In this document: piece by piece, positions 1 to 61,711 of the stretch
Numbering within the stretch: position 1 is the first letter of the stretch
How the letters are laid out: every line of letters starts with the position of its first letter
Source of the DNA: Alphaproteobacteria bacterium
GTDB lineage: Bacteria; Pseudomonadota; Alphaproteobacteria; MPNO01; UBA830
DNA: 64,000 bases
NCBI GenBank assembly: GCA_965243135.1
Contig: OZ251539.1
Location: 1,280,001 to 1,344,000, forward strand
Direction: 5' to 3'
Program-made: the position numbers and the translations under genes
The notes under the pieces: generated by a model
Databases searched by the model: none
The model's input: only the letters and a program-made list of their open reading frames with translations
Told to the model about the DNA's origin: nothing

Positions 1-766
1 CGCGAGGCACGGCGGATCTTTTCTCCGGGTAAAAGCTCTCTCCCTGTCAATTCCGAGGCGCAACGCAGGCAGTCGGCAATCTCCGTCGCGAGGCGGTACG
101 GGCTTCGCAGCGAGTCAAGCGTCCCGCCCCTCGTCCCCCCGAAGGCCGCCGCGCGACGCTCTTCGCAGCGGCAACGCGTTCCCGGAATCTCCACGCCGGT
201 CCCGAAAGGCGCACTACGCACGCTTACCGGTCGGGCGAGCGCGGCCCACCAAAGTCCGTCTCGCGGTCAGAGATCCCCGAGCAAGCCCCCTGTCGCCGCG
301 CCCAGGCAAGAAGTCCGCCGCGACACCGTACAGGCAGCGCCGGGCGTCTCTCCGGCCCCTGCAAGCGGCATGACGAGGACACCACCCGGAAAGCGAGGAC
401 AGGACGTCACATTGCCCTTCCGTTCCTGAGCGGGTTCTCCCATGTCGGCGGTCGACCGAAGACGCGCTCCGGGGCCGCCGTTCCGCAGGAATCTTCTCCG
501 CCGAAATGATCCTCCTGTCAATTCCGACGCGGCCGTCGACGAGAACGGCCGGCTCTCCCGCCCCGCAGCGCGGCGCAGAACCCGGAGACGCGCCCGGCCC
601 GCGAAGCCTGCAAGGAGACGCCGCCGCGGCCCCGAGGCGGCCTCCTCGGCCGGGCGGCCCGTCAAGCCGCGCGACGAACCGGCGGAACCGGCTGCCGCCG
701 CAGGCCGAACCACGGGCGGCGTTCTTTCGCAGAGGCGGCCGTGTCCGAACGGAACCTCGTCCGGCT

Positions 767-2299
767 TCAGGCGGCCTCGCAATCGAACCCGACGACGTTG
801 CGCTCCGCCCGGCTGAACTCCACCCCGATCAGGTGGACCGAACGCCCGAGGCGGCGGTACTTGTCCGCGTAGCCCTTCTCCCGCAACTGCGCGATCGCGG
901 TCCCCTCCCGTCCGCGCTCCACCACCTTGAACTCGAACAGGTAGACGCGCCCGCCGGCGCGGATCGCCATGTCGGCGCGCCCCCGGCTGCCGCTGTCCTC
1001 CGCGACCGGCTCGAGGCCCTCCATCAGGAAGCAGCTGTGGATGACGCTCGCGTAGTGGGCCTCGTACTTCGCGACGGGGCTGGTCGCGTACCACTGGTGC
1101 GGGATGGCAGCGAAAATGCCGCGGAACAGGGTTTCGAGACGCCTGAAGTCGTTCGCCTCCAGCAATTCGCCCAGCCGCAGGTTCTCCGTCTCCTCGCGGG
1201 CCTCGTCCGGGAGCAGTTCTTCCAGCAGGGCCTCGCCCAGGCTCTGGCGCACTTCGAGGTTCGGGTAGCCCAGCCTGTAGCGCCCGTTCTCCTCGCCGGC
1301 GATGGTGAGGTAGCCGGTCTGGAACAGAAGCGCCTCGACCGACATCCTGTCCACGTCGAAGGCCGAGAGCAGGCTCTCGCTGCCGATCATTCCGTCCAGG
1401 CGTGGAGTGGGCAGGTTGCGGCGCGCCAGCGTCTCGACCAGGAAGGTCGGGGTGCCGCTCTGGAACCAGTACGGGCGGAACTCGCGCCGCTGAAACAGCA
1501 GCAGCAGGCCGAACGGGTTGTAGACCCTCTCCGGCCCGCGCCAGTTGTAGCCGTTGTACCAGCGCCGGATCTCGTCCCGGTCCAGGCCCTCGAGTTCCGG
1601 GGCGAAGGCCGCGTCCAGCTCCGCGTCCGTGCAGCCGCAGATGTCCGAGAACTCCGGCGCCAGCGTGATGTCGTTCAAATTGTTCAGGCCCGAGAACAGG
1701 CCCGATAACTTGCTCACCCCCGTCAGGAAAACGAAACGCAGCTGCCTGTCGCATGCCTTGATCACCCCGTACAGGCTGCGCAGGAAGTCGCGGTTGGCCA
1801 GCGCCACTTCCCGGTCGCCGAGCGCGTCCAGGATCGGCTTGTCGTACTCGTCCACCAGAACGACCGCCCGCTGTCCGGCGCGCTCGTGCAGCGTCCTTAT
1901 CAGGCGCCGGAAACGGACCGCCGCCCCCGGGGGGCCCGGTTCGAGGCCGGCCTGCATCTCCGTCTCTTCCAACTGCGCTTCCACGGTTCCCCGAACCCCG
2001 TCCGGGGTGTCGAAACGGCCCACGCCGCTGAAATCCAGCCGCACGACCGGATGGCGCGCCGACCAGTCCCACTTGCCGTGCACGGCGAGGCCGCGGAACA
2101 ACTCCTCGCTTCCTTCGAACAACTCCTGCAGGGTGTCCACCAGCAGGGTCTTGCCGAACCGGCGCGGACGCGACAGGAAATAGTACTTGCCCCCTTCGAT
2201 GAGGCGGCGCGCATGGTCCGTCTTGTCGACGTAGTAGCAGTCCATCCCCCGGATCTCCCGGAGGGAGGAAAAGCCGATCGGAAGCATGCGTTTCGTCAT
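767..2299 (-). CDS. AAA-ATPase-like (PF09820-type) + C-terminal PD-(D/E)xK nuclease (PDDEXK_9/DUF1703-type), copy 1
   Basis: YYVDKT, Walker A RPRRFGKT, Walker B VVLVDEYDKP, SGLNNL, YNPF, YPNLEV, GRADM...LFEFK, ALAQ-like/KGY motifs. ATG at 2299 (MTKRMLPIG). Confidence 0.9.
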   Translation of the reverse strand: MTKRMLPIGFSSLREIRGMDCYYVDKTDHARRLIEGGKYYFLSRPRRFGKTLLVDTLQELFEGSEELFRGLAVHGKWDWSARHPVVRLDFSGVGRFDTPDGVRGTVEAQLEETEMQAGLEPGPPGAAVRFRRLIRTLHERAGQRAVVLVDEYDKPILDALGDREVALANRDFLRSLYGVIKACDRQLRFVFLTGVSKLSGLFSGLNNLNDITLAPEFSDICGCTDAELDAAFAPELEGLDRDEIRRWYNGYNWRGPERVYNPFGLLLLFQRREFRPYWFQSGTPTFLVETLARRNLPTPRLDGMIGSESLLSAFDVDRMSVEALLFQTGYLTIAGEENGRYRLGYPNLEVRQSLGEALLEELLPDEAREETENLRLGELLEANDFRRLETLFRGIFAAIPHQWYATSPVAKYEAHYASVIHSCFLMEGLEPVAEDSGSRGRADMAIRAGGRVYLFEFKVVERGREGTAIAQLREKGYADKYRRLGRSVHLIGVEFSRAERNVVGFDCEAA

Positions 2300-2305
2300 C
2301 CGAAG

Positions 2306-2334
2306 AGGGTAGGCCGCCATGCCGGAGCCGTCAA
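2306..2334 (-). promoter_or_regulatory. sigma70-like promoter (TTGACG-17 bp-TACCCT) 6 nt upstream of the ATG; leaderless mRNA; conserved before all seven copies
   Basis: Minus strand reads TTGACG gctccggcatggcggcc TACCCT cttcgg ATG. No Shine-Dalgarno. Equivalent sequence precedes copies 2-7. Confidence 0.65.
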
Positions 2335-2956
2335 GAAGTCGGCGGTCGCGAGGCACGGCGGATCTTTTCTCCGGGTAAAAGCCTCTCTCCCTGTCAATTC
2401 CGAGGCGCAACGCAGGCAGTCGGCAATCTCCGTCGCGAGGCAGTACGGGCTTCGCGGGAGTCAAGCGTCCCGCCCTTCGTCCCCCCCGAAGGCCGCCGCG
2501 CGACGCTCTTCGCCGCGGCAACGCGTTCCCGGAATCTCCACGCGGGTCCCGAAAGGTGCACTACGCACGCTTACCGGTCGGGCGAGCAGCGAGGACAGGA
2601 CGTCACATTGCCCTTCCGTTCCTGAGCGGGTTCTCCCATGTCGGCGGTCGACCGAAGACGCGCTCCGGCGGCCGCGACAGCGCTCCGGGGCCGCCGTTCC
2701 GCAGGAATCTTCTCCGCGCGAAATGAATTTTCTCGCCCTCTCAAGCCTTGCCTCCCGGCTCCGGCATCGTCGAACGGGGCCGGCCCGCAAAGCCTGCCGG
2801 CGCGCGAGCGCCCGCAGGGAGACGCCGCCGGCCACGAGGCGGCCTCCTCGCCGGGCGGCCCGTCAAGCCGCGCGACGAACCGGCGGGACCGGCTGCCGCC
2901 GCAGGCCGAACTCGCGGCGGCGTTCTTTTGCGGAGGCGGCCGTGACGGGAAGCCGT

Positions 2957-4474
2957 TCAGGCGGGCTCGCAGTCGAACCCGACGACGTTGCGCTCCTCGC
3001 GGCTGAACTCCACCCCGATCAGGTGGACCGAACGACGGCGGTACTTGTCCGCATAGCCCTTCTCCCGCAGTTGCGCGAGCGCGGTCCCCTCCCGCCCGCG
3101 CTCCACCACCTTGAACTCGAACAGGTAGACGCGCCCGCCGGCGCGGACCGCCATGTCGGCGCGCCCCCGGCTGCCGCTGTCCTCGGCGACCGGCTCAAGG
3201 CCCTCCATCAGGAAGCAGCTGTGGATGACGCTCGCGTAGTGGGCCTCGTACACCGGGCTGTTCAAGTACCACTGGTGCGGGATGGCGGCGAAGACGCCGC
3301 GGAACAGGGTCCCGAGGCGCTCGAAGTCGTTCGCTTCCAGCAATTCGCCCAGCCGCAGGCGCTCCGTCTTCTTGCGCGCCGCGTTCGGGAGCAGTTCTTC
3401 CAGCAGGGCCTCGCCCAGGCTCCGGCGCACCTCGAGGTTCGGGTAGTCCAGCCTGTAGCGCCCGTCCTCCTCGCCCGCGATGGTGAGGTAGCCGGTCTGG
3501 AACAGAAGCGCCTCGACCGAGATATTGTCCACGTCGAAGGTCGAGAGCAGGCTCTCGCTGCCGATCATGCCGTCCAGGTCGGGAGTGGGCAGGTCGCGGC
3601 GCGTCAGCGTCTCGACCAGGAAGGTCGGCGTGCCGCTCTGGAACCAGTACGGGCGGAACACGCGCCGCCGAAACAGCAGCAGGAGGCCGAACGGGTTGTA
3701 GACCTTTTCCGGTCCGAGCCAGTTGTAGCCGTTGTACCAGCGGCGGACCTCGTCCCGGTCCAGACCCTCGAGTTCCGGGGCGAAGACCGCGTCCAGTTCG
3801 TCGTCCGTGCAGCCGCAGATGTCCGAGAACTCCGGCTCCAGCGTGACGTCGATCAGGTTGTTCAGGCCCGAGAACAGGCCCGCCAACTTGCTCACCCCCG
3901 TCAGGAAAACGAAACGGAGCTGCTCGTCGCAGTCCTTGATCATCGCGTAGAAGCCGCGCAGGAAGTCGCGGTTGGCCAGCGCCAGTTCCCGGTCGCCGAG
4001 CGCGTCCAGAATCGGCTTGTCGTACTCGTCCACCAGAACGACCGTTCGCTGCCCGGTGCGCTCGTGCAGCGTCCTTATCAGGCGCCGGAAACGGACCGAC
4101 GCCTCGGCGGGGCCCGGTTCGAGGCCGGCCAGCCGCTCCGTTTCCTCCAACTGGTCTTCCACGTTGCTCCGAATGAAGTCCGGGGAGTCGAAATTGCCCC
4201 CGCCGAAGCTGATCCGCACGACAGGATGGCGCGCCGACCAGTCCCACTTGCCGTGTATGGCGAGGCCCCGGAACAACTCCTCGCTTCCCTCGAACAGCTT
4301 CTGCAGCGTGTCCACCAGCAGCGTCTTGCCGAACCGGCGCGGACGCGACAGAAAATAATATTGACCACCCTCGATAAGGCGGCGGACATGGTCCGTCTTG
4401 TCGACGTAGTAGCAGTCCATCCCCCGGATTTTCCGGAGGGAGGTCATGCCGATCGGAAGCATGCGTTTTGCCAT
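2957..4474 (-). CDS. AAA-ATPase-like + PD-(D/E)xK nuclease, copy 2
   Basis: Same motifs as copy 1. Starts MAKRMLPIG; has a few small in-frame deletions. Confidence 0.9.
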   Translation of the reverse strand: MAKRMLPIGMTSLRKIRGMDCYYVDKTDHVRRLIEGGQYYFLSRPRRFGKTLLVDTLQKLFEGSEELFRGLAIHGKWDWSARHPVVRISFGGGNFDSPDFIRSNVEDQLEETERLAGLEPGPAEASVRFRRLIRTLHERTGQRTVVLVDEYDKPILDALGDRELALANRDFLRGFYAMIKDCDEQLRFVFLTGVSKLAGLFSGLNNLIDVTLEPEFSDICGCTDDELDAVFAPELEGLDRDEVRRWYNGYNWLGPEKVYNPFGLLLLFRRRVFRPYWFQSGTPTFLVETLTRRDLPTPDLDGMIGSESLLSTFDVDNISVEALLFQTGYLTIAGEEDGRYRLDYPNLEVRRSLGEALLEELLPNAARKKTERLRLGELLEANDFERLGTLFRGVFAAIPHQWYLNSPVYEAHYASVIHSCFLMEGLEPVAEDSGSRGRADMAVRAGGRVYLFEFKVVERGREGTALAQLREKGYADKYRRRSVHLIGVEFSREERNVVGFDCEPA

Positions 4475-5177
4475 CCAAAGAGGGTAGGCCGCCGCGCCGG
4501 AGCCGTCAAGAAGTCGGCGGTCGCGAGGCACGGCGGACCTTTTCTCCGGTTAAAAGCTCTCTCCCTGTCAATTCTGAAGCGTAACGCAGGCAGTCGGCAA
4601 TCTCCGTCGCGAGGCAGTACGGGCTTCGCGGCGAGTCAAGCGTCCCGCCCTCGTCCCCCCGAAGGCCGCCGCGCGATCAGAGATCCCCGAGCAAGCCCCC
4701 TGTCGCCGCGCCCAAGCAAGAAGTCCGCCGCGACGCCGTACAGGCAGCGCCGGGCGTCTCTCCGGCACAGCCCCTGCAAGCGGCATGGCGAGGACACCAC
4801 CCGGAAAGCGAGGACAGGACATCGCATTGCCCTTTCGTTCCTGAGCGGGTTCTCCCATGTCGGCGGTCGACCGAAGACGCGCTCCGGCGGTCGCGACAGC
4901 GCTCCGGGGCCGCCGTTCCGCAGGAATCTTCTCCGCGCGAAATCAATTTTCTCGCCCTCTCAAGCCTTGCCTTCCGGCCCCGGCATCGTCGAACGGGCGC
5001 CGGTCCGCAAAGCCTGCCGACGCGCGAGCGCCTGCAAGGAGACGCCGCCGGCCACGAGGCGGCCTCCTCGGCCGGGCGGACCGTCAAGCCACGCGGCGAA
5101 CCGGCAGAACCGGCTGCCGCCGCAGGCCGAACCCGCGGCGGCGTTCTTTCGCGGAGGCGGCCGTGACGGAAAGCCGT

Positions 5178-6713
5178 TCAGGCGGTCTCGCAATCGAAGC
5201 CGACGACGTTGCGCTCCTCGCGGCTGAACTCCACCCCGATCAGGTGGACCGAACGTCCGAGACGGCGGTACTTGTCCGCATAGCCCTTCTCCCGCAGCTG
5301 CGCGAGCGCGGTCCCCTCCCGCCCGCGCTCCACCACCTTGAACTCGAACAGGTAGACGCGCCCGCCGGCGCGGATCGCCATGTCGGCGCGCCCCCGGCTG
5401 CCGCTGTCCTCGGCAATCGGCTCAAGGCCCTCCATCAGGAAGCAGCTGTGGATGACGCTCGCGTAGTGGGCCTCGTACTTCGCGACGGGGCTGTTCATGT
5501 ACCACTGGTGCGGGATGGCGGCGAAAATGCCGCGGAACAGGGTTTCGAGACGCTTGAAGTCGTTCGCCTCCAGCAATTCGCCCAGCCGCAGGTTCTCCGT
5601 CTCCTCGCGGGCCTCGTCCGGGAGCAATTCTCCCAGCAGGGCCTCGCCCAGGCTCCGGCGCACCTCGAGGTTCGGATAGTCCAGCCTGTAACGCCCGTCC
5701 TCCTCGCCGGCGATGGTGAGGTAGCCGGTCTGGAACAGAAGCGCCTCGACCGAGATCCTGTCCACGTCGAAGGTCGAGAGCAGGCTCTCGCTGCCGATCA
5801 TGCCGTCCAGGCGTGGAGTGGGCAGGTTGCGGCGCGCCAGCGTCTCGACCAGGAAGGTCGGCGTGCCGCTCTGGAACCAGTACGGGCGGAACTCGCGCCG
5901 CCGAAACAGCAGCAGGAGGCCGAACGGGTTGTAGACCCTCTCCGGCCCGCGCCAGTTGTAGCCGTTGTACCAGCACCGGACCTCGTCCCGGTCCAGGCCC
6001 TCGAGTTCCGGGGCGAACACCGCGTCCAGTTCCGCATCCGTATAGCCGCAAATGTCCGAGAACTCCGGCTCCAGCGTGACGTCGATCAGGTTGTTCAGGC
6101 CCGAGAACAGGCCCGCCTGCGAGAACTTGCTCACCCCCGTCAGAAAAACGAAACGGAGATGCCTGTCGCAGTCCTTGATCGCCCCGTACAGGCTGCGCAG
6201 GAAGTCGCGGTTGGCCCGCGCCAGTTCCCGGTCGCCGAGCGCGTCCAGGATCGGCTTGTCGTACTCGTCCACCAGAACGACCGCCCGCTGCCCGGTGCGC
6301 TCGTGCAAGGCCTCGATCAATTCCCCGAAACGGTTCGACGCCTCGACGGGATCCGGTTCGAGGCCGGCGCGCCTCTCCGCCGCCGCCAGCTGCCTTTCCA
6401 CGGTTATCCGAACCCCGTCCGGCGCACGGAAATTGCCCCTGCCGAAACTGAGCCGCACGACCGGATGGCGCGTCGACCAGTCCCACTTGCCGTGCACGGC
6501 GAGGCCCCGGAACAACTCCTCGCTTCCCTCGAACAGCTCCTGCAGCGTGTCCACCATGAGGGTCTTGCCGAACCGGCGCGGACGCGACAGGAAATAGTAC
6601 TTGCCCCTCTCGACGAGGCGGCGCACATGGTCCGTCTTGTCGACGTAGTAGCAGTCCATCCCCCGGATCTCCCGGAGGGAGGAAAAGCCGATCGGAAGCA
6701 TGCGTTTCGTCAT
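5178..6713 (-). CDS. AAA-ATPase-like + PD-(D/E)xK nuclease, copy 3
   Basis: Same motifs; 511 aa from the ATG at 6713. Confidence 0.9.
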   Translation of the reverse strand: MTKRMLPIGFSSLREIRGMDCYYVDKTDHVRRLVERGKYYFLSRPRRFGKTLMVDTLQELFEGSEELFRGLAVHGKWDWSTRHPVVRLSFGRGNFRAPDGVRITVERQLAAAERRAGLEPDPVEASNRFGELIEALHERTGQRAVVLVDEYDKPILDALGDRELARANRDFLRSLYGAIKDCDRHLRFVFLTGVSKFSQAGLFSGLNNLIDVTLEPEFSDICGYTDAELDAVFAPELEGLDRDEVRCWYNGYNWRGPERVYNPFGLLLLFRRREFRPYWFQSGTPTFLVETLARRNLPTPRLDGMIGSESLLSTFDVDRISVEALLFQTGYLTIAGEEDGRYRLDYPNLEVRRSLGEALLGELLPDEAREETENLRLGELLEANDFKRLETLFRGIFAAIPHQWYMNSPVAKYEAHYASVIHSCFLMEGLEPIAEDSGSRGRADMAIRAGGRVYLFEFKVVERGREGTALAQLREKGYADKYRRLGRSVHLIGVEFSREERNVVGFDCETA

Positions 6714-7475
6714 CCGAAGAGAGTAGGCCGCCGCGCCGGAGCCGTCAAGAAGTCGGCGGTCGCGAAGCACGGCGGATCTTTCTCCGGGCTCCCTGTCAGT
6801 TCTGAAGCGCAACGCAGGCAGTCGGCAATCTCCGTCGCGAGGCAGTACGGGCTTCGCGGCGAGTCAATCGTCCCGCTCCTCGTCCCCCCAAAGGCCGCCG
6901 CGCGACGCTCTTCTCAGCGGCAACGCGTTCCCGGAATCTCCACCCCGAAAGGCGCACTACGCACGCTTACCGGTCGGGCAAGCGCGATCCACCAAAGTCC
7001 GTCTCGCGATCAGAGATCCCCGAGCAAGCCCCCTGTCGCCGCGCCCAGGCAAGAAGAGTCCGGCGCGACGCCGTACAGGCAGCGCCGGGCGTCTCTCCGG
7101 CACAGCCCCTGCAAGCGGCATGACGAGGACACCACCCGAAAGCGAGGACAGGACATCGCATTGCCCTTCCGTTCCTGAGCGGGTTCGTCGGCGGTCGACC
7201 GAAGACGCGCTCCGGCGGCCGCGACAGCGCTCCGGGACCGCCGTTCCGCAGGAATCTTCTCCGCGCGAAATTAATTTTCTCGCTCTCTCAAGCCTTGCCT
7301 CCCGGCATCGTCGAACGGGCGCCGGCCCGCAAAGCCTGCCGGGAACGGCGTGCGAGCGCCTGCAAGGAGACGCCGCCGGCCACGAGGCGGCCTCCTCGGC
7401 CGGGCGGCCCGTCAAGCCGCGCGACGAACCGGCGGAACCGGCTGCCGAAATGTCCGAACGGGACCTCGTCCGGCT

Positions 7476-9011
7476 TCAGGCGGCCTCGCAATCGAAGCCG
7501 ACGACGTTGCGCTCCTCGCGGCTGAACTCCACCCCGATCAGGTGGACCGAACGTCCGAGATGGCGGTACTTGTCCGCGTAGCCCTTCTCCCGCAACTGCG
7601 CGAGCGCAGTCCCCTCCCGCCCGCGCTCCACCACCTTGAACTCGAACAGGTAGACGCGCCCGCCGACGCGGATCGCCATGTCGGCGCGCCCCCGGCTGCC
7701 GCTGTCCTCGGCGACCGGCTCAAGGCCCTCCATCAGGAAGCAACTGTGGATGACGCTCGCGTAGTGGGCCTCGTACTTCGCGACGGGGCTGTTCATGTAC
7801 CACTGGTGCGGGATGGCGGCGAAGACGCCGCGGAACAGGGTTTCGAGACGCTTGAAGTCGTTCGCCTCCAGCAGTTCGCCCAGCCGCAGGTTCTCCGTCT
7901 CCTCGCGGGCCTCGGCCGGGAGCAGTTCTTCCAGCAGGGCCTCGCCCAGGCTCTGGCGCACCTCGAGGTTCGGGTAGTCCAGCCTGTAGCGCCCGTCCTC
8001 CTCGCCGGCGATGGTGAGGTAGCCGGTCTGGAACAGAAGCGCCTGGACCGACATCCTGTCCACGTCGAAGGCCGAGAGCAGGCTCTCGCTGCCGATCATG
8101 CCGTCCAGGCGGGGAGTGGGCAGGTCGCGGCGCGCCAGCGTCTCGACCAGGAAGGTCGGCGTGCCGCTCTCGAACCAGTAGTTGCCGAACCTGCGCTCGG
8201 CGAACAGCAGCAGGAGGCCGAACGGGTTGTAGAGCCTCTCCGGCCCGCGCCAGTTGTAGCCGTTGTACCAGCGCCGGATCTCGTCCCGGTCCAGGCCCTC
8301 GAGTTCCGGGGCGAAGACCGCGTCCAGTTCCGCGTCCGTGCAGCCGCAGATGTCCGAGAACTCCGGCGCCAGCGTGATGTCGCGCAGGTTGTTCAGGCCC
8401 GAGAACAGGCCAGCCTTCGAGAACTTGCTCACCCCCGTCAGGAAAACGAAACGGAGATGCCTGTCGCTGTCCTTGATCATCGCGTAGAAGCCGCGCAGGA
8501 AGTCGCGGTTGGCCCGCGCCAGTTCCCGGTCGCCGAGCGCGTCCAGGATCGGCTTGTCGTATTCGTCCACCAGAACGACCGCCCGCCGCCCGGTGCGCTC
8601 GTGCAGCGTCCGTATCAGGCGCCGGAAACGGATCGACGCCTCGGCAGGCCCCGGTTCGAGGCCCGCCAGCCGCTCCGTCTCCTCCAGCTGGTCTTCCACA
8701 TCTTTCCGAACGAAGTCCGGAGTGTCGAAATTGCCCCCGCCGAAGCTGATCCGCACGACCGGGTGACGCGTCGACCAGTCCCACTTGCCGTGCACGGCGA
8801 GGCCCCGGAACAGCTCCTCGCTTCCCTCGAACAACTCCTGCAGCGTGTCCACCAGCAGGGTTTTGCCGAACCGGCGCGGACGCGACAGGAAGTAGTACTT
8901 GCCCCTCTCGACGAGGCGGCGGGCATGGTCCGTCTTGTCGACGTAGTAGCAATCCATCCCCCGGATCTCCCGGAGGGAGGAAAAGCCGATCGGAAGCATG
9001 CGTTTCGCCAT
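7476..9011 (-). CDS. AAA-ATPase-like + PD-(D/E)xK nuclease, copy 4
   Basis: Same motifs; 511 aa. Confidence 0.9.
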   Translation of the reverse strand: MAKRMLPIGFSSLREIRGMDCYYVDKTDHARRLVERGKYYFLSRPRRFGKTLLVDTLQELFEGSEELFRGLAVHGKWDWSTRHPVVRISFGGGNFDTPDFVRKDVEDQLEETERLAGLEPGPAEASIRFRRLIRTLHERTGRRAVVLVDEYDKPILDALGDRELARANRDFLRGFYAMIKDSDRHLRFVFLTGVSKFSKAGLFSGLNNLRDITLAPEFSDICGCTDAELDAVFAPELEGLDRDEIRRWYNGYNWRGPERLYNPFGLLLLFAERRFGNYWFESGTPTFLVETLARRDLPTPRLDGMIGSESLLSAFDVDRMSVQALLFQTGYLTIAGEEDGRYRLDYPNLEVRQSLGEALLEELLPAEAREETENLRLGELLEANDFKRLETLFRGVFAAIPHQWYMNSPVAKYEAHYASVIHSCFLMEGLEPVAEDSGSRGRADMAIRVGGRVYLFEFKVVERGREGTALAQLREKGYADKYRHLGRSVHLIGVEFSREERNVVGFDCEAA

Positions 9012-9798
9012 CGTAAGAGAGTAGGCCGCCGCGCCGGAGCCGTCAAGAAGTCGGCGGTCGCGAGGCACGGCGGATCTTTCTCCGGGCTCCCTGTCAGTTC
9101 TGAAGCGCAACGCAGGCAGTCGGCAATCTCCGTCGCGAGGCAGTACGGGCTTCGCGGCGAGTCAATCGTCCCGCTCCTCGTCCCCCCAAAGGCCGCCGCG
9201 CGACGCTCTTCTCAGCGGCAACGCGTTCCCGGAATCTCCACCCCGAAAGGCGCACTACGCACGCTTACCGGTCGGGCAAGCGCGATCCACCAAAGTCCGT
9301 CTCGCGATCAGAGATCCCCGAGCAAGCCCCCTGTCGCCGCGCCCAGGCAAGAAGAGTCCGGCGCGACGCCGTACAGGCAGCGCCGGGCGTCTCTCCGGCA
9401 CAGCCCCTGCAAGCGGCATGACGAGGACACCCACCCGAAAGCGAGGACAGGACATCGCATTGCCCTTCCGTTCCTGAGCGGGTTCGTCGGCGGTCGACCG
9501 AAGACGCGCTCCGGCGGCCGCGACAGCGCTCCGGGGCCGCCGTTCCGCAGGAATCTTCTCCGCGCGAAATTAATTTTCTCGCTCTCTCAAGCCTTGCCTC
9601 CCGGCATCGTCGAACGGGCGCCGGCCCGCAAAGCCTGCCGGGAACGGCGTGCGAGCGCCTGCAAGGAGACGCCGCCGGCCACGAGGCGGCCTCCTCGGCC
9701 GGGCGGCCCGTCAAGCCGCGCGACGAACCGGTGGCTGCCGCCGCAGGCCGAACCGCGGGCGGCGTTCTTTCGCGGAGGCGGCCGTGACAGAAAGCCGT

Positions 9799-11334
9799 TC
9801 AGGCGGTCTCGCAATCGAAACCGACGACGTTGCGCTCCTCGCGGCTGAACTCCACCCCGATCAGGTGGACCGAACGTCCGAGACGGCGGTACTTGTCCGC
9901 GTAGCCCTTCTCCCGCAGCTGCGCGAGCGCGACCCCCTCCCGCCCGCGCTCCACCACCTTGAACTCGAACAGGTAGACGCGCCCGCCGGCGCGGATCGCC
10001 ATGTCGGCGCGCCCCCGGCTGCCGCTGTCCTCGGCCACCGGCTCGACGCCCTCCATCAGGAAGCAGCTGTGGATGACGCTCGCGTAGTGGGCCTCGTACT
10101 TCGCAACCGGGCTGTTCATGTACCACTGGTGCGGGATGGCGGCGAAAACGCCGCGGAACAGGGTTTCGAGACGCCTGAAGTCGTTCGCCGCCAGCAATTC
10201 GCCCAGCCGCAGGTTCTCCGTCTCCTCGCGGGCCTCGACCGGGAGCAGTTCTTCCAGCAGGGCCTCGCCCAGGCTCTGGCGCACCTCGAGGTTCGGGTAG
10301 TCCAGCCGGTAGCGCCCGTCCTCCTCGCCGGCGATGGTGAGGTAGCCGGTCTGGAACAGAAGCGCCTGGACCGACATCCTGTCCACGTCGAAGGTCGAGA
10401 GCAGGCTCTCGCTGCCGATCATGCCGTCCAGGCGGGGAGTGGGCAGGTCGCGGCGCGCCAGCGTCTCGACCAGGAAGGTCGGCGTGCCGCTCTCGAACCA
10501 GTAGTTGCCGAACCTGCGCTCGGCGAACAGCAGCAGCAGGCCGAACGGGTTGTAGAGCCTCTCCGGCCCGCACCAGTTGTAGCCGTTGTACCAGCGCCGG
10601 ATTTCGTCCCGGTTCAGGCCCTCGAGTTCCGGGGCGAAGACCGTGTCCAGTTCCGCGTCCGTGCAGCCGCAGATGTCCGAGAACTCCGGCGCCAGCGTGA
10701 TGTCGCGCAGGTTGTTCAGGCCCGAGAACAGGCCTGCCTTCGAGAACTTGCTCACCCCCGTCAGGAAGACGAAGCGGAGATGCCTGTCGCAGTCCTTGAT
10801 AACCCCGTACAGGTCGCGCAGGAAGCCGCGGTTGGCCAGCGCCAGTTCCCGGTCGCCGAGCGCGTCCAGGATCGGCTTGTCGTATTCGTCCACCAGCACG
10901 ACCGCCCGCTGCCCGGTGCGCTCGTGCAGTTCGGAGATCAGATGGTGCAGGCGGTCGGAGGCGTCCGGGTAGCCGCATTGGACGCCGGCGCGCTTTTCGG
11001 CGGCGTCGAGCTGCATCATCGCGTTCCTGTGCAGCCGGTCGGGGACGACGAAATTGCGCCCGCCGAAACTGAGCCGCACGACCGGGTAGCGCACTGACCA
11101 GTCCCACTTGCCGTGCACGGCGAGGCCCCGGAACAGCTCCTCGCTTCCTTCGAACAGCTCTTGCAGCGTGTCCACCAGGAGGGTCTTGCCGAACCGGCGC
11201 GGACGCGAGAGGAAATAGTATTTGCCCCTCTCGACGAGGCGGCGCACATGGTCCGTCTTGTCGATGTAGTAGCAGTCCATCCCCCGGATCTCCCGGAGGG
11301 AGGAAAAGCCGATCGGAAGCATGCGTTTCGTCAT
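9799..11334 (-). CDS. AAA-ATPase-like + PD-(D/E)xK nuclease, copy 5
   Basis: Same motifs; most divergent variable cassette (FVVPDRLHRNAMMQLDAAEKRAGVQCGYPDASDRLHHLISE). Confidence 0.9.
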   Translation of the reverse strand: MTKRMLPIGFSSLREIRGMDCYYIDKTDHVRRLVERGKYYFLSRPRRFGKTLLVDTLQELFEGSEELFRGLAVHGKWDWSVRYPVVRLSFGGRNFVVPDRLHRNAMMQLDAAEKRAGVQCGYPDASDRLHHLISELHERTGQRAVVLVDEYDKPILDALGDRELALANRGFLRDLYGVIKDCDRHLRFVFLTGVSKFSKAGLFSGLNNLRDITLAPEFSDICGCTDAELDTVFAPELEGLNRDEIRRWYNGYNWCGPERLYNPFGLLLLFAERRFGNYWFESGTPTFLVETLARRDLPTPRLDGMIGSESLLSTFDVDRMSVQALLFQTGYLTIAGEEDGRYRLDYPNLEVRQSLGEALLEELLPVEAREETENLRLGELLAANDFRRLETLFRGVFAAIPHQWYMNSPVAKYEAHYASVIHSCFLMEGVEPVAEDSGSRGRADMAIRAGGRVYLFEFKVVERGREGVALAQLREKGYADKYRRLGRSVHLIGVEFSREERNVVGFDCETA

Positions 11335-11999
11335 TCGAAGAGGGTAGGCCGCCGCGCCGGAACCGTCAAGAAGTCGGCGGCGGCCGGCTTGTCTTGCGCC
11401 GCGTCCCCTGGCGCGACAAGCAGCCGGCAGTTTCCGCGGCGGTACGGGCGACCGGCGGGGAAAAGCGCGGGGGCGAGCGAACCTGTCGCTCCGCGGAAAT
11501 CCCGCCCCGCCGAGGCGAGCGCGTTCGGCACGCGCAACGCGCGGCCTGGAGGCCGCGGGCGGAAGCGAACGCCGACGGAATGCGCTGCCGCCAAAGGCGA
11601 CGCACGTCGACAACGACGTCGACGCCGGATTCGCGAGTCTCGACGGCAAGGTCGACGCCCTCGCCGCGGAAACCGGGGCCGGCGCAACGCGACGGCAAGC
11701 GCCCTCGCCAGGGAAAGCCGCGCGCAACTAGGACGATTGTCGCGGCAGGCCTCGCCGCCCCTGCGTTGGTTCGCCCCGAAGATCCGCACGCGACGACGAC
11801 ATGCGCCTCAAGCGGCGAAACGCCTGAACGCCAGACAACGGTTCCGTCGAACGAGAGCGTCGTCCGGTCGGGCGAGGCGGACCTCCACCTCCTTGAGCGA
11901 AAAATCTTCCGGCGCGGAAATCTCAGCCGTGACCTGTGAGCAACCGAATCGGTTGGCGAAAGTCAGAGAAAAATGCAGCGCAGTGAAAAAATGTGGAAT

Positions 12000-12454
12000 C
12001 ATGCCGCTACCTTGGCGTGAGATCGTCCTGGGTGGAAAGCGACGGCGTCTTGACGGCCCGGCTTCGGCGCCGCAGCTTGGACGATCACGCTGCGGAACAA
12101 GTGCAGGAATCCTGAAACCCGCCACCGCAACCTGCCGCTGATGGTCAACAACGCCAAAGTCCTGCCTTGGGCAGGAACCTTGCGTCCTATGCCCTCACCC
12201 TGGTCGAACGGCGGTTGCCGGACGACTGGGATCTCCGTTACGCGTCGCGTCCGGTCCCGCCCGAGACCTTCTGCGAAATGCCGCGCTTCGCGGGAACCTG
12301 CTACCGGGCCGCCAGCAAGGTCGGCGCGACCCAGGGCCGCGCGGCAACACCCGGCGCGAACGCGCTCACCCGGTCAAGGATGCTGAAGCCTCTGCGACGG
12401 GACAGGAGACGGATCCTCAAAAAATAGACTGTCACTTGACGAACGAACGCTTAC
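12000..12454 (+). pseudogene. Degenerate DUF4338 (DruA-like) gene ending at an IS66-like right end
   Basis: Fragments RNLPLMVNNA..LPW and NLASYALTLVERRLPDDWDLRY..RPV..ETFCE.PRFAGTCYRAA. CGAACGCTTAC (reverse complement of IS66-type GTAAGCGTTCG) at 12444-12454. Confidence 0.65.
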
Positions 12455-12927
12455 GGTTTGGGTTTCTCAAGAACGATTTATTTCCTGATCGGACGCCTTG
12501 TTATCGGCGTTCTTCAAGCCGAGAGCGCCTATAGCCTTCCGAATATCCTGACGAATACGAATTCCGTCGCGGATACGCGCCAAAAAGCCATAGTCCGGTC
12601 TCTTCGCCGGCACGTCGTCAGGGAACATGTGCACGCAAACAAAGGCATCCCAGAGAGTCTCGTCGCGAGAATCTTGGGGTTCGTCAAATTCCTTATGGAG
12701 TCCGAAGGTCATAACGGAAGGGCCTCCCTGAACGCCGCGCATTTCGCCGTGGCCGTGGAACCTCGAGGGCCGACCAGGGGGATCTCGCCGGAACCATTCT
12801 TCGCGAGCTTTCGGTGACCCTCTGCCGCTGCGCGACCGCGAAATCATCCGAGCACGAAAAGGCTTTCCTGCGTCGATCAATCATGACCAGTATTTACGTT
12901 ATTGACGAGCTGTCAACCAACCCCGGA

Positions 12928-14893
12928 CACGGCTAATTTGTTCTAATTCTGTCGTTGTCCGCCGGGTGCCTTCTGCGAGTGTTTTCGGTCATCCGCAAAT
13001 AGTCCAGAACCAGCCGCGGACTTCGCTGGAGGCGCCGGATGGTGGATGCGACGCAGGCGTTCTTGGCCTTGATCAAGCCGATGGCGAAGCGACGCAACCG
13101 CGTCGTGTTTTCGGGTCCGTAGCCGGTACGGATCCGCTGGCGATCCTCGTCCCAGTTCCAGTCGAGGATGTAGTGACTGCTGTTTTCGACCGTCCAGTGC
13201 CCGCGGTTGAACGCGAGTACCTGTGCCGGGCTGGCGGTGCCGGGAGTGTGGCTGGTATAGATCGTTTCCTTGCTGGTTTTTCCGGTTTTCTTGACGGTCA
13301 CATAACGCTCGATCGCGAAGACTTGGCCAACGTCGGGAAAATCGAGATAGTCGTTGAGATCAGTGGACACCCAGACGGCCCGTTCTTCGATTCGTCCGTG
13401 CCGAAGATCGACATCTTCCCGGAAGTCGGGTTCGCCCCTGTCTTTGAAGAGAAGTTCGATATCGGCCAACAGATTCGGCTGGTTTCCCTTGACGGTAAAG
13501 ACGTAGAAAGCTCCCCGCTCGCCGAGGTAGGCGGCGAGTTTCCGCTGGGTCAGCAGGGCATCGACGGTAAAGGTCTTGCCGGAAATATCCGACGTCATCT
13601 GCTCCAACATGGGGATGACCATGCCGATTTCGTTGGTCTGCTTGACTTCGTCCCCGGTCGGCAGTTTTCCGACCTTTTTCTGAACATGCGTGGCGGACGT
13701 TTGGTGGCCGACGGCGCTGATGACATGGACTTGGTTGCCTTCGTCATCGACGGCACCGCGCAGTGTCTTGCCGTCGATCGCGAAAGCGGAATCTTCGAAG
13801 CCGTAGTCGGCGTTGAAGCGTTGCAGGGCAGCGTCCAGCTTGTCGGGGTCGACCCGCACCAGCACAATAACGCTTGTGCTGGGCACATGATATTTTCCGT
13901 TGCGGTGCCTGCAGCAGAACCTTTCCCGCGCCTTCTCGCCAAGAGACTCCACCCACTCCCCCTTGGCCTTGAGGCTGCGCATGCCGCATAGCGCAGCGGC
14001 GGCGGAAAGCGCCAGTATGGTGGCAAGAGAATGACGCTGACCCTGGCGCCGCCGCGGGTCGGGGATATCCATGAAATATTCCGGCAAGGCGCGCATCATG
14101 CTGGCTTCAATCATGATCTTGGGACCTCCATGACGATAGACGGGGGCAAGTTCAACGGCACTCATCCTTGCTCTGGCGTCGGAGGCCAGAGGACGGACGA
14201 AAACGAGTTTGCGGGTGCTCGGGCTGTAGCCGTCGCGATGGCGGCGAAAGCCGCGCGTGCGCCCAAGGCACTGCCAGTTCGCCGCTTTGTAGACAGTGCC
14301 CGGGAAACGCGCCGGATCGACGAAAGTCTCCAGCAACAACAGCGGGTGGCCGAAGCGTTTGGACCAGTCCGACGCAAGCCGTTGTTCACAAAGCGAAAGC
14401 AGGCGCGACGCCAGGTTCCGGCGATGCCAGCCCGGCAGGATCAGGAACCGGCTGTTGTTGGTCACCAGGTGCAGCCGGTCGTACTGGATGCGGAAATCCC
14501 AACCGATCCAGGCATCCCGCGCACGGCACTTCAGGGCCGGAGAGGAAAAGCTCATCAGAGCGATCCACTCGTCACGCCAACGTGCCACGTACCACAGCGT
14601 TTCGCCGATCTTCGGCAATGCGCCCAGATAATGATGAGCCTGCATCAGGCGCTGAAAGCGTCCCTCGTCGTTCGCAGGCTCGACGACAACTTCATGCAGC
14701 ATGGCAACCTCCAAGAAGTTCCATACTGCCGAATCAGTCCGGGGAAGTCCAGTCCTTCGGGTAACCGCATGATTTAGTGGAATTTCTTCTCCAGCAAAGC
14801 CGGCGTGCGGTTTTCTGACCGGCAGGTAGACCGGATCTGGTACCTAAGATCATGTTAATAAAGAGCTTTTACTCGGAGAATAAATCCGCCGTG
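12928..14893 (-). mobile_element. Complete ISAs1-family insertion sequence (1966 bp) with 17-bp IRs and 10-bp TSD
   Basis: IR CACGGCTAATTTGTTCT (12928-12944) versus reverse complement of 14877-14893, CACGGCGGATTTATTCT (14/17 match). Direct repeat CAACCCCGGA at 12918-12927 and 14894-14903. Confidence 0.92.
12933..14702 (-). CDS. ISAs1-family DDE transposase with fused N-terminal DUF4338 (DruA-like) domain
   Basis: N-terminal HHYLG, RDAWIGW, NNSRFLILP, NLASRLL, LLETFVDP.RF.GT.YKAANW. C-terminal IPDPRR, AIDGKTLRG, NEI, DALLTQR, VKGNQP, HGRIEER, RGHWTVEN..H..LD...ED. GGAGG upstream of ATG 14702. Confidence 0.9.
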   Translation of the reverse strand: MLHEVVVEPANDEGRFQRLMQAHHYLGALPKIGETLWYVARWRDEWIALMSFSSPALKCRARDAWIGWDFRIQYDRLHLVTNNSRFLILPGWHRRNLASRLLSLCEQRLASDWSKRFGHPLLLLETFVDPARFPGTVYKAANWQCLGRTRGFRRHRDGYSPSTRKLVFVRPLASDARARMSAVELAPVYRHGGPKIMIEASMMRALPEYFMDIPDPRRRQGQRHSLATILALSAAAALCGMRSLKAKGEWVESLGEKARERFCCRHRNGKYHVPSTSVIVLVRVDPDKLDAALQRFNADYGFEDSAFAIDGKTLRGAVDDEGNQVHVISAVGHQTSATHVQKKVGKLPTGDEVKQTNEIGMVIPMLEQMTSDISGKTFTVDALLTQRKLAAYLGERGAFYVFTVKGNQPNLLADIELLFKDRGEPDFREDVDLRHGRIEERAVWVSTDLNDYLDFPDVGQVFAIERYVTVKKTGKTSKETIYTSHTPGTASPAQVLAFNRGHWTVENSSHYILDWNWDEDRQRIRTGYGPENTTRLRRFAIGLIKAKNACVASTIRRLQRSPRLVLDYLRMTENTRRRHPADNDRIRTN

Positions 14894-15502: not shown

Positions 15503-16606
15503 ATGAAAGGTAAGAAGACGATGCCTGACACGGGATCCCCCGCGATCGAAGACGACGATCTGATACAGGGCGAAGACGCGAGCGACGATGAAATCGCTGA
15601 CCCGGTTCGCTACATCATAACGAGTTACGGGGCGGACATGCCGGTCGACGGGCTCATAAAGCGCTTTGACAATGGAGACGTCTTCATCCCGGACTTTCAG
15701 AGGAACTTTGTCTGGACATTGGCGCAGGCTTCACGTTTCATCGAATCCCTTCTTCTGGGACTTCCGGTTCCCGGAATTTTCCTGTTCAAGGAACCGGATA
15801 CGCAAAAATTGATGGTCGTCGATGGGCAGCAGAGGCTGCAAAGCCTGAAAAAATTTTATGAAGGGAACTTTGCGGAAAAGAGATTCAAGTTGATCGGAGT
15901 CTCGCCGGAATTCGGCAACAAAACGTACCAGGATCTTTCCTCACCTGATCGGCTTCGTTTCGATGATTCAATTATGCACGCAACCATATTCCAGCAGGCA
16001 GATCCCAGTAATGATCGAAGCTCAATATATTCAGTTTTCGAACGTTTGAATACGGGCGGGACACCTCTCACTCCTCAAGAGATTCGGGCGTGCGTGTACA
16101 GAGGAAAGCTCGACAAGATGTTATCGGAATTTGCAGACAATCCCTCGTGGAGAGAGTTATACGGTAAGAGGAACATTCGGAAAAAGGGCGAAGAGATCAT
16201 TTTGCGCTTCTTTTCTCTCTATTTCGATCTCGAAAAATACGAGCGTCCGATGAAGCGATTTCTGAATCTGTTCATGGAAGAGAATCGCGAACCAGACAGG
16301 GATCGGGAGGACGAGCTCCGCAAACTGTTCACAAGGACAGTGGGTGTCGCTGCGGACGTTCTCACGAAGGAAGCGTTTCGTCCAGAAGGGGCTTTCAACG
16401 TTGCGGTCGCGGACGCTACATTGGTGGGCTTGGCGCACAGGTTGCAAAGTGGCGATGTCCGGGATCGCGTCTCCTTGAAATCTCGCCATGACGAGTTGTT
16501 GAGGCGATTGCGGCAGGAAAATCTGCATAAAGTGAGCACTGCCGACAAAGATCGCGTCTTGAGGCGCATTGAATACGCGCGTAAATGTTATGGGTCAGTT
16601 CAATGA
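15503..16606 (+). CDS. DUF262 (ParB/GmrS-like) domain protein
   Basis: PDFQRNFVW, SRFIESLLLGLPVP, VVDGQQRL, FERLNTGG..LT.QEIR motifs. Confidence 0.9.
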   Translation: MKGKKTMPDTGSPAIEDDDLIQGEDASDDEIADPVRYIITSYGADMPVDGLIKRFDNGDVFIPDFQRNFVWTLAQASRFIESLLLGLPVPGIFLFKEPDTQKLMVVDGQQRLQSLKKFYEGNFAEKRFKLIGVSPEFGNKTYQDLSSPDRLRFDDSIMHATIFQQADPSNDRSSIYSVFERLNTGGTPLTPQEIRACVYRGKLDKMLSEFADNPSWRELYGKRNIRKKGEEIILRFFSLYFDLEKYERPMKRFLNLFMEENREPDRDREDELRKLFTRTVGVAADVLTKEAFRPEGAFNVAVADATLVGLAHRLQSGDVRDRVSLKSRHDELLRRLRQENLHKVSTADKDRVLRRIEYARKCYGSVQ

Positions 16607-18929: not shown

Positions 18930-19266
18930 TTAAGCGCCTTGAAATACTCCGCGCCGTTCGTACTGCTTGCGCATCGCACTTTTCAACTCGCCCTCCGCAG
19001 CGAGCGGCAGCCAGTCGAGAGCCTCCGGTCCTGCGGGCGAGCGTGGAGAGAGGCGCGCCGCCGATCCCGTCGCCGGGCAGCGCCGGCCGGACGCGGGCTG
19101 CGCGGCACCCCACGAAGGGCCATCTTGATCCTTCGCCTCGCACCTGCGGCGGAAAACGGATCTCTCGTCGTGAACGCCCGGCTCTTCCCGCACCGCGCCG
19201 GCACCACGCTCAAAAGCGGAAATACCCCTCCTGGTCGGCGGATCGCTGGTCGATGGTCGGCGTCCT

Positions 19267-21264: not shown

Positions 21265-21486
21265 GTTCGTTCCTCGAAAATCTCGCCGAAATCCTTGCGC
21301 CCGCATGCCTCATGCAGCGCGAGCAGGCGCTGCGCATGATTTTCCCTTGGCGCTGCAACCGAACTGCAGGCATCGATATTGACGATATGGAACGGTCCCC
21401 TGCGTTTCAAATCCCTATAAGCCTCGCTGCCTGTGCAACAGAGCGCTCCCGCCTGTTTGTTCCTCGGTGCAGACGATGCGTGGCCA

Positions 21487-61681: not shown

Positions 61682-61711
61682 CAATGTCTCCGTCAGCGGT
61701 CAGACTGCAAT

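Follow-up and report, generated by a model that had tools for sequence, protein, structure and literature searches.

What is a tandem array of near-identical ATPase-nuclease genes doing in a bacterial chromosome, and does it create new specificities of an immune-type protein? Here, we address this question for an array of DUF1703 genes at positions 767-11334 of a 64,000-nt stretch of the genome of an Alphaproteobacteria bacterium (GenBank assembly GCA_965243135.1, contig OZ251539.1, positions 1,280,001 to 1,344,000; the window in the following). A preliminary description, made from the letters of this stretch, had proposed a candidate immune-receptor locus in which a hypervariable cassette is swapped between neighbouring genes to generate specificity variants. 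Our analyses support that the array is one small part of a genome-wide family, that its genes are mosaics and that their cassettes are exchanged as units. An evolutionary mechanism that combines tandem duplication with genome-wide short-tract gene conversion, exchange of whole cassettes and retention of old cassette alleles is well supported.

The window is part of a single 6.10-Mb contig (genome G000), in which one housekeeping gene, for alanine dehydrogenase, has its closest match (88%) in a metagenome-assembled genome of the Immundisolibacterales. The minus strand of the window carries, head to tail, five complete DUF1703 genes encoding proteins of 505-511 amino acids (aa):

767-2299, minus strand: copy 1, a DUF1703 ATPase-nuclease of 510 aa with cassette type 1 and C-terminal haplotype 0
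2957-4474, minus strand: copy 2, 505 aa, cassette type 0, with three in-frame 6-nt deletions at family hot spots
5178-6713, minus strand: copy 3, 511 aa, cassette type 3, the reference for residue numbering
7476-9011, minus strand: copy 4, 511 aa, cassette type 0
9799-11334, minus strand: copy 5, 511 aa, cassette type 4

All five matched PF09820 (AAA-ATPase_like; E values of 3e-54 to 5e-60, 184-203 bits against a cut-off of 26.1) and PF08011 (PDDEXK_9; E values of 5e-16 to 6e-14, 52-59 bits, cut-off 25.5). Each tandem unit spans 2178-2323 bp, with 63-100% identity of its parts between copies. Just off the window, the array continues with an intact sixth copy (genome positions 1278418-1279953) and a frameshifted seventh (1276538-1278068). 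The preliminary description had named the five genes and the sixth copy correctly; likewise, every peptide string and shared block that it quoted is present in the translations, and the 3' flanks indeed come in two types (copies 1 and 4 versus copies 2, 3 and 5). The longer open reading frames (ORFs) listed for these genes begin at upstream TTG or GTG codons; we take the ATG of MTKRMLPIG or MAKRMLPIG as the real start because the Pfam ATPase profile begins there and because P7 and G9, which are conserved in at least 90% of 113 diverse family members, are kept. The array genes have G+C fractions of 0.67, 0.43 and 0.89 at codon positions 1, 2 and 3, and we discarded the plus-strand antisense ORFs of 773-1113 aa (1886-5227, 4857-7178 and 7350-9848) as the usual artefact of genes rich in G+C at third codon positions.

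Using tblastn with copy 3 against the genome and chaining of all matches, we identified 162 family loci in 6.1 Mb, of which 98 are intact, 33 span the full gene and are broken, and 31 are fragments, giving one family member about every 40 kb. Thus, the tandem array is real but makes up only a small part of the family, whose members are stand-alone genes. Among the 98 intact full-length copies, none of which contains a stop codon, 97 are 505-522 aa long and one extends to 609 aa; their protein identity to copy 3 is 84-92% for ~50 copies, 60-76% for ~46 copies and 43% for two. All 98 differ in sequence, with no two alike among the 96 copies that are >55% identical to copy 3. Other arrays exist (e.g., four copies at genome positions 18463-26249 and six at 1937991-1952695) besides many singletons, and the window itself holds two further members:

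52812-54325, plus strand: a broken family member with a 7-nt deletion at the nt-248 hot spot
57768-59309, plus strand: an intact family member of 513 aa, with a backbone 67% identical to copy 3 and yet the cassette type of copy 1

It is hardly credible that strain variants were collapsed or joined into a chimeric array during assembly. Among the public contigs, none covers a complete unit (the Logan contigs here are 100-300 nt long, and their depths are sums over paralogues and not copy numbers). However, the genome is a single contig in which all 98 full-length copies have open frames; array DNA is present in sponge metagenome runs, where array-specific spacer pieces are found with 0 differences in runs X1, X3 and X4, one of which may be the source sample; and the same architecture is found in the closed genome of a sister species (G004).

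To locate the variable part of the protein, we used column entropy among the 50 close copies, which peaks at residues about 88-135 (within the block at about 86-135), between Walker A (44-51) and Walker B (145-152), with lesser peaks at residues 211-220 and 271-280. The corresponding segments in the array are as follows:

1892-2044, minus strand: cassette of copy 1, corresponding to residues 86-135 of the reference; it lies before Walker B and comprises two helices preceded by a loop and the end of strand beta2
4070-4219, minus strand: cassette of copy 2
6309-6458, minus strand: cassette of copy 3
8607-8756, minus strand: cassette of copy 4
10930-11079, minus strand: cassette of copy 5
6039-6092, minus strand: second small polymorphic block of copy 3 (residues 208-225; three alleles genome-wide, 52/23/21)

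Based on the Nei-Gojobori method, the cassette has a synonymous divergence (dS) of 0.41, a nonsynonymous divergence (dN) of 0.28 and a dN/dS of 0.69 among the 50 close copies, and 0.58, 0.36 and 0.61, respectively, among the six array copies. The rest of the gene has dS 0.11-0.22, dN 0.04-0.08 and dN/dS 0.17-0.54 in both sets. Cassette dS and dN are both 2-5 times the flank values; at silent and replacement sites alike, the cassette is far older than the flanking sequence, and the flanks coalesce 2-5 times more recently than the cassette lineages. The preliminary description had counted on an elevated dN/dS in this block; no ratio is clearly above 1 over the cassette, and dN/dS gives no formal proof of positive selection on it. 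With a threshold of 90% nucleotide identity, clustering divides the 98 cassettes into 11 groups (23, 18, 15, 13, 9, 7, 7, 2, 2, 1 and 1 members). Each of the seven large types occurs on both close and distant backbones, and several copies have identical cassettes. The block between Walker A and Walker B is therefore the most variable part of the protein, as described before, but it is not hypervariable: it comes in ~7 major discrete alleles and, rather than generating new specificities, it represents a small set of old alleles kept in a pool.

The intact copies are mosaics. The pairwise homoplasy index (PHI) is 0.365 for the five window copies (permutation mean, 0.571), 0.132 for the six array copies (permutation mean, 0.498) and 0.425 for the 50 close copies (permutation mean, 0.522), with 0 of 1000, 0 of 1000 and 0 of 200 permutations as low, respectively; and the four-gamete test gives a minimum (Rmin) of 29 recombination events among the window copies and 36 among the array copies. 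Whichever 120-nt window of an array copy is taken, some paralogue is 93-100% identical to it, and the best-matching paralogue keeps changing along the gene; mostly, it is a dispersed copy, the distant subfamily included. In a block map of 96 copies, obtained by clustering windows of 90 nt, residues 1-90 and 151-210 fall into one cluster, whereas the cassette forms 9-16 clusters and has an adjusted Rand index of 0.00-0.07 with every other region. Residues 211-240 have two or three alleles and are also nearly unlinked, and linkage is strong throughout residues 301-480 (index 0.8-0.97), a single block that comes in three haplotypes (50, 33 and 12 copies). Consistently, cassette type shows no association with the C-terminal haplotype (chi-square 14.0, 12 df, p=0.30) or with the mid block (chi-square p=0.87), while mid block and C-terminal haplotype are associated (p=1e-4); among 71 copies, 29 of the 42 possible combinations of the major classes are realised. 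The claim of recombining mosaics with an independently swapping cassette is borne out by these data.

The relationship between tandem neighbours helps to separate array growth from module exchange. Among 28 same-strand neighbour pairs (5000 shuffles), the C-terminal haplotype is shared in 89% against a shuffled mean of 40% (0 of 5000 shuffles reach the observed value), the mid block in 68% against 39% (9 of 5000) and the cassette in 25% against 15% (525 of 5000), so that cassette sharing does not exceed the chance level. The spacers give a similar picture:

6714-7475, minus strand: spacer upstream of copy 3, 99-100% identical over ~600 nt to 9012-9798, the spacer upstream of copy 4

In contrast, 100-nt windows of the genes of copies 3 and 4 show an identity of 74-98%, with 74-83% at the cassette and 89-93% in other stretches. 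The simplest reading is that a recent tandem duplication was followed by the overwriting of coding segments from ectopic donors and, more generally, that arrays grow by unequal crossover while mosaics arise by gene conversion from the whole family. Of the two processes proposed earlier, unequal crossover or gene conversion, conversion fits the mosaics better than within-array crossover, since the donors are genome-wide. The gene consists of a constant framework and three polymorphic modules, i.e., a 50-aa cassette in the ATPase core (~7 major alleles), the block at residues 208-225 (3 alleles) and the half comprising winged helix and nuclease (3 haplotypes). Short-tract gene conversion between copies genome-wide keeps the framework homogenised, and the same process moves whole cassettes between backbones faster than arrays grow.

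To place the cassette in the protein, we used an AlphaFold2 model based on a 113-sequence alignment (mean predicted local distance difference test score [pLDDT] 92.4, predicted template modelling score 0.90). In this model, the protein appears as an AAA+ ATPase of the type found in the origin recognition complex (ORC) and in signal transduction ATPases with numerous domains (STAND), with a nucleotide-binding core, a helical lid and a winged-helix region, fused to a PD-(D/E)XK nuclease. DSSP assigns strands to residues 85-89 and 144-149 and helices to residues 100-115 and 125-140; the cassette, with pLDDT 94-98, runs from the end of strand 85-89 through a loop, the first helix and a second loop into the second helix, just before the Walker B strand 144-149. 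Within the cassette, residues F90, P98, D99, Q108, L109, E113, G117, R128, L132, I133 and L136 are invariant, while positions 96, 97, 100, 103, 104, 107, 110, 122-124, 127, 130, 131, 134 and 135 are highly variable and often swap charge. Invariant and variable residues alternate at helical periodicity, which fits a buried conserved face and an exposed variable face of the modelled helices.

We infer that the old cassette alleles are being retained, because exchange is fast and drift alone should fix one type, yet seven deep lineages persist. An alternative is that the pattern is a neutral by-product, conceivable for any high-copy family that recombines actively by homology, in which a less constrained segment diverges past the homology needed for conversion and then moves only as a block, so that its alleles have no adaptive meaning. 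A cassette dN/dS below 1 and the many decayed copies agree with this explanation, and so does the finding that, across the wider family as well, conservation within the ATPase is lowest in the cassette region (consensus mostly x in 113 sequences). However, exchange is fast, as seen from the linkage equilibrium and the randomised tandem neighbours; under drift a single type should then remain, and seven major types persist at dS 0.4-0.6 against 0.1-0.2 in the flanks. Moreover, the cassette keeps its framework residues unchanged and varies on one helical face only. Relatives also argue against it. PF09820 is present in five of the 31 genomes searched, G000 included, with 23 matches in the same-genus genome G004, nine (split) in G002, one in G003 and nine in the same-order genome G030. 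In G004 (17 of 20 fetched regions; three were dropped because they had no clean start or were truncated), the copies share 96% identity in the N-terminus and 62% in the cassette; dS and dN of the cassette are 0.59 and 0.27 against 0.14-0.16 and 0.02-0.07 in the flanks, and 0 of 1000 permutations have a PHI as low. In G030 (7 copies), identity is 72% in the cassette and 90-94% elsewhere. Thus, G004 shows the same pattern with alleles of its own and G030 shows it less strongly, and we consider the neutral explanation unlikely.

What the protein does can be approached from its fold and catalytic residues. The nuclease motif of the reference copy is located as follows:

5337-5411, minus strand: PD-(D/E)XK motif region of copy 3 (E435, D444, E457 and K459)

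Among the 98 intact copies, the Walker A residues G49, K50 and T/S51 are present in 98, Walker B D149 in 98 and E150 in 96, and the nuclease residues E435 in 98, E457 in 98, D444 in 92, K459 in 96 and Q472 in 93. The ATPase-nuclease architecture described previously is thus upheld, with catalytic residues retained in 92-98 of 98 copies. A search of the PDB by sequence gave nothing below an E value of 0.5. By structure (a Foldseek list with Z scores, using residues 1 to ~365 for the ATPase part), the best matches are the archaeal AAA+ ATPases 2qen and 2fna (Z 15.9 and 15.8; 280 residues aligned over residues 4-357), followed by plant nucleotide-binding leucine-rich repeat proteins (NLRs; Z 14.3 for RPP1, and 14.1), CED-4 and Apaf-1 (Z 13.3 and 12.9), ORC2 (Z 12.9), Avs3 (Z 11.6), BrxC (Z 11.4) and TnsC (Z 10-11); for residues ~301-511, the matches are the PD-(D/E)XK nuclease domains of CidB (Z 11.3) and CinB (Z 10.6). 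The proposed likeness to NLRs applies to the fold, in that the ATPase module resembles both NLR/STAND and ORC ATPases; NLR- and Avs-type folds score 11.6-14.3, and ORC-type and archaeal ATPases score as high or higher (12.9-15.9). Folding two copies of residues 1-365 with ATP gave a score of 0.00 against a mark of 0.42, which is evidence neither way.

Judged from its sequence, the product would be a cytoplasmic protein of ~511 aa. This bears on the idea that these nucleases are symbiosis effectors exported against nucleic acids of a host or competitor, as suggested for the Cardinium paralogues with predicted signal peptides. The organism's DNA occurs in sponge metagenome runs, and published expansions of the family lie in host-associated bacteria (Cardinium and Torix Rickettsia). 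By contrast, the N-terminus (MTKRMLPIGF...) belongs to the conserved ATPase domain and includes the P7 and G9 positions, no hydrophobic signal-peptide stretch is visible by eye (no predictor was run), and no secretion genes are linked within the window. We therefore regard an effector function as very unlikely.

Based on fold, motifs, genomic context and the pattern of variation, we suggest instead that the family encodes ATP-gated nucleases used in genetic conflict or defence, with the cassette as a specificity surface and a repertoire that is reshuffled by genome-wide gene conversion; we see the case for this reading as evenly balanced. In such a mechanism, the variable face of the cassette helices would bind a trigger or an inhibitor, or another cassette in an oligomer, and the nuclease would be switched on by ATP-dependent assembly, similar to that of ORC- and NLR-like ATPases, to attack the DNA of phages or other mobile DNA. 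The cassette shows no covariation with the other variable blocks, which speaks against two different surfaces of one protein fitting each other like lock and key; the cassette may instead contact an outside partner or another cassette. The genome would hold a combinatorial germline-encoded repertoire in which broken copies may act as extra donors. A stronger version, which we advance only tentatively and consider doubtful, holds that ~100 individually promoted, minimal NLR-like ATPase-nucleases carry specificity modules, namely a surface-exposed ATPase-core cassette, the second small block and the half with winged helix and nuclease, as discrete alleles under balancing selection that are re-dealt by ectopic gene conversion with pseudogenes as donors. 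Such a repertoire would be a prokaryotic counterpart of NLR clusters or of immune diversification based on gene conversion. In a bolder variant, the nucleases themselves make the breaks that drive cassette exchange.

The genes around the array were also said to form a defence island. Based on a scan with PADLOC-DB, the window contains the following defence-type genes:

15503-16606, plus strand: NsnA-like / GmrSD_N (DUF262) gene (best PADLOC E 4.5e-65)
27760-30759, plus strand: methyltransferase resembling type IIG restriction-modification enzymes (best PADLOC E 3.9e-37)
41370-44870, plus strand: E1-E2 / JAB / patatin fusion (best PADLOC E 1.3e-78, E1-E2 model)
46282-48495, plus strand: OLD/AriA-like ATPase-TOPRIM gene (best PADLOC E 5.6e-28)
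59843-62929, minus strand: HerA and SIR2 pair (best PADLOC E 1e-158 and 1.6e-155)

The product of 41370-44870 is a single 1166-aa protein that joins prokaryotic E2, E1 (ThiF), JAB and patatin phospholipase and resembles a ubiquitin-like regulator of the type found in CBASS (cyclic oligonucleotide-based anti-phage signalling systems) fused to an effector. Adjoining the array, a gene on the minus strand (12933-14714) encodes a DDE_Tnp_1 transposase that begins with a fused DruA-like domain (E 2.9e-24). At 21487-25578, also on the minus strand, lies a gene for a 1363-aa protein with only an N-terminal HTH_3 match and no PADLOC match. The window is thus defence-rich, as claimed, but copies lie all over the genome, one every ~40 kb, so the proximity may be due to chance, and co-location with defence genes is weak evidence for function.

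Together with this possible chance proximity, several findings weigh against a reshuffled repertoire of defence nucleases. About 40% of the loci (64 of 162) are decayed, and single copies are thus dispensable. The cassette dN/dS is below 1 (0.61-0.69), and only the 15-codon window 91-105 reaches 1.0-1.3. The small number of cassette alleles and the many identical cassettes are a poor fit to a broad sensor repertoire. Pfam finds only two domains, the protein ends with the nuclease, and the model contains no repeat domain, so a repeat or sensor domain is not seen. Among the family proteins, scans gave no PADLOC-DB family at E <= 0.01 and no NCBIfam match. Cassette alleles shared between species were not found in a comparison of G000 with G004 (best cassette identity, 56%); the alleles differ between the species, and cassette diversification is therefore recurrent and lineage-specific. 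Finally, a scan for consensus promoters found 0 promoter-like sites in window positions 1-12200; it missed the upstream element described below because the second hexamer of this element matches only three of six consensus positions.

The flanks of the copies are informative regarding how the family spreads. Genome-wide, homology reaches ~45-60 nt or more upstream of the ATG and ~45-200 nt past the stop codon; the endpoints vary and, on the 3' side, lie anywhere from ~10 to >200 nt beyond the stop codon. As for the array spacers, their central 400 nt are found in only ~six places genome-wide. Within the 5' homology, the array copies share a conserved element:

6720-6748, minus strand: conserved upstream element of copy 3 (TTGACG, 17-nt spacer, TACTCT, 6 nt to the ATG)
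2306-2334, minus strand: the same upstream element in another copy
4481-4509, minus strand: the same upstream element in another copy
9018-9046, minus strand: the same upstream element in another copy
11341-11369, minus strand: the same upstream element in another copy

The second hexamer is TACCCT or TACTCT, and a Shine-Dalgarno sequence is lacking. In nearly all of 50 listed high-identity copies, all of which have a full frame, the arrangement is TTGAC(G/A)-17 nt-TAnnnT-6 nt-ATG. We suggest that this element is a putative promoter for a leaderless mRNA that is carried by each copy. When the upstream regions of the relatives (L101-L127, from G004 and G030) were compared with window positions 6714-6773, the genes of G004 and G030 instead had an ordinary Shine-Dalgarno-like box (GGGAAAGG or GGGAGAG) 6-9 nt before the ATG. 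A terminator scan of positions 1-12200 gave four terminator-like sites against 9.6 expected and nothing usable, and an Rfam scan of positions 1-13000 gave no match at E <= 1. We rejected the idea of a small partner gene or RNA in the conserved flanks, given that the indels in the 200-nt tail and upstream spacer are not multiples of three and that these segments have no conserved ORF.

These flanks bear on the idea that the family is selfish, i.e., that the ATPase-nuclease promotes its own spread or retention in a homing-like, addiction-like or transposition-related manner. Copy number would then reflect proliferation and not host benefit, and the cassette alleles would mark competing selfish lineages or serve self-recognition. 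The very high copy number agrees with this, as do the many dispersed singletons, each with the short upstream element and a conserved tail of 45-200 nt, and the decay of 64 of 162 loci, which resembles a birth-and-death process. In addition, PD-(D/E)XK nucleases and TnsC-like AAA+ ATPases occur in transposons (cf. the TnsC fold match), a group II intron homes into the family, and, according to Siozios et al. 2019 (PMC6387759), a bacterial DUF1703 homologue lies inside the Medea selfish element of Tribolium. However, we saw no terminal inverted repeats, target-site duplications or fixed common ends in the flank listings of the copies, and the homology endpoints vary as described above; tandem arrays with shared spacers point to segmental duplication; and the copies differ by 10-35%, unlike active insertion sequences (ISs). 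Few phage or plasmid records contain a match: 29 of 50,697 phage records, each an unannotated fragment from a faecal metagenome, and 65 of 72,556 plasmid records, of which 55 are non-mobilizable. The plasmid homologues include a lone one among toxin-antitoxin genes in Azotobacter and a tandem pair near a methyltransferase and an HNH gene in Calditerrivibrio, and this setting among toxin-antitoxin or restriction-modification genes agrees with the conflict or defence reading. Regarding empty and filled sites, identity to the same-genus genomes is only 70-82%, and synteny is lacking at the locus compared. Altogether, we judge a selfish family to be improbable.

Returning to the defence repertoire, its novelty can be judged against known systems. 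Borrelia vls, Neisseria pilS and trypanosome variant surface glycoprotein genes are mosaics that arise by segmental gene conversion from related copies, including pseudogenes, and the PHI values (0 of 1000 permutations), the Rmin of 29-36 and the switching of the nearest paralogue described here are similar. In contrast to antigenic variation, this family has no single expression site with silent promoterless donors, in that the intact copies have a full frame and the upstream element, and its products would be cytoplasmic enzymes and not surface antigens. Rpn (YhgA-like) of enterobacteria is likewise a PD-(D/E)XK nuclease family that occurs in multiple copies, contains a highly variable segment and is linked to recombination; it differs in belonging to another Pfam family, in lacking an ATPase domain and in having far fewer copies. 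Plant NLRs form clustered multigene families diversified by recombination and share the ATPase fold (Z 14), and Avs/STAND proteins (Avs3, PDB 8dgc) have a similar ATPase fold (Z 11.6) fused to a nuclease effector. Unlike both, the DUF1703 proteins have no C-terminal repeat or sensor domain and no PADLOC match to Avs, and their variable part lies inside the ATPase core. The initiator AAA+ proteins (ORC/Cdc6) and the archaeal PAB2304 and SSO1545 (2qen and 2fna) are the best structural matches over residues 4-357. The model has two helices between strand beta2 and Walker B, the position of the initiator-specific motif in ORC, Cdc6 and DnaA. In contrast to the initiators, the DUF1703 proteins have a fused nuclease, and their cassette is acidic and not basic, making DNA contact doubtful; no origin-binding role is implied.

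Within DUF1703 itself, Knizewski et al. 2007 (PMC1913061) describe the two modules, the unusual Walker A (RPRRFGK[ST]) and the DEYD Walker B, and also name YhgA-like proteins; the copies studied here share both Pfam domains, both Walker motifs and the PD-(D/E)XK motifs with Cardinium and other members. Siozios et al. 2019 (PMC6387759) report 25 paralogues in Cardinium cCpun, among which RDP4 and PHI detected recombination; they describe a comparable expansion in the Rickettsia of a midge, call the function unknown and give fewer than four copies for most species and >=10 for 9.8%. The statement in the preliminary description that the family shows lineage-specific expansions and has no established function agrees with that study and with our full-text literature search, which found no functional study of the DUF1703 family (PF09820/PF08011). 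A table in a 2023 review lists PF09820 among the ATPase domains of RADAR RdrA, PARIS and Old-tin; our PADLOC scan of the family proteins gave no match of these types. The family in Cardinium cCpun is similar in being a lineage-specific expansion in a host-associated bacterium with intragenic recombination between paralogues; it differs in having 25 paralogues, where the genome described here has 98 intact and 64 decayed loci, and in a mean identity of 39%, where the copies here are 60-92% identical. The family described here further has a homogenised framework with discrete modules in linkage equilibrium and a defined ATPase-core cassette, and no signal peptides are evident by eye, whereas paralogues with predicted ones are described for Cardinium. 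Family expansion and recombination are thus already in print; the scale, the modular architecture in linkage equilibrium and the defined cassette are new.

DUF1703 is very widespread (17,493 clusters at E <= 0.001 in a 50%-identity library), has been amplified repeatedly in host-associated bacteria and has no known function. The genome described here carries a natural experiment of ~100 near-isogenic genes that differ mainly in their cassette and C-terminal modules, and these natural variants make it possible to design cassette-swap and mutant tests directly. If the repertoire is real, bacteria would diversify an immune-type family by paralogue expansion and gene conversion, a route so far tied to plants, vertebrates and antigenically variable pathogens; even if the family is selfish or neutral, it provides a clear prokaryotic case of concerted evolution with protected allelic islands.

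Two further features of the family are of note. An ORF-less group II intron of ~860 nt (Rfam RF02003, 77 bits; RF00029, 51 bits) is inserted at the identical codon (between QTGYL and TIAGE, residue ~332) in at least five copies, and a sixth copy holds a 3.6-kb version at the same site. Its removal would restore the reading frame in at least one copy, the one that we read through. The sites are as follows:

L012 positions 4731-5572 (genome 1150705-1151560): group II intron site
genome 1933573-1935949: group II intron site
genome 3617911-3620295: group II intron site
genome 4118662-4121041: group II intron site
genome 2889065-2891254: group II intron site
genome 2664731-2669812: group II intron site

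The second feature is that decayed copies genome-wide have recurrent deletions of 5, 6 or 7 nt at ~40 discrete sites, some with two sizes (e.g., 5 or 7 nt at gene nt 248), while indels of other sizes are rare in them (five of 1 nt and three of 2 nt). We found no microhomology and no common motif at these sites. We set aside the possibility that recurrent 5-nt deletions bracketing the cassette are traces of targeted breaks, because copies of the group II intron and of one IS have the same 5-7-nt bias. In-frame 6-nt deletions also occur in intact copies, such as copy 2 (2957-4474), and a short-read contig of run X4 has a 5-nt deletion at window position 10935.

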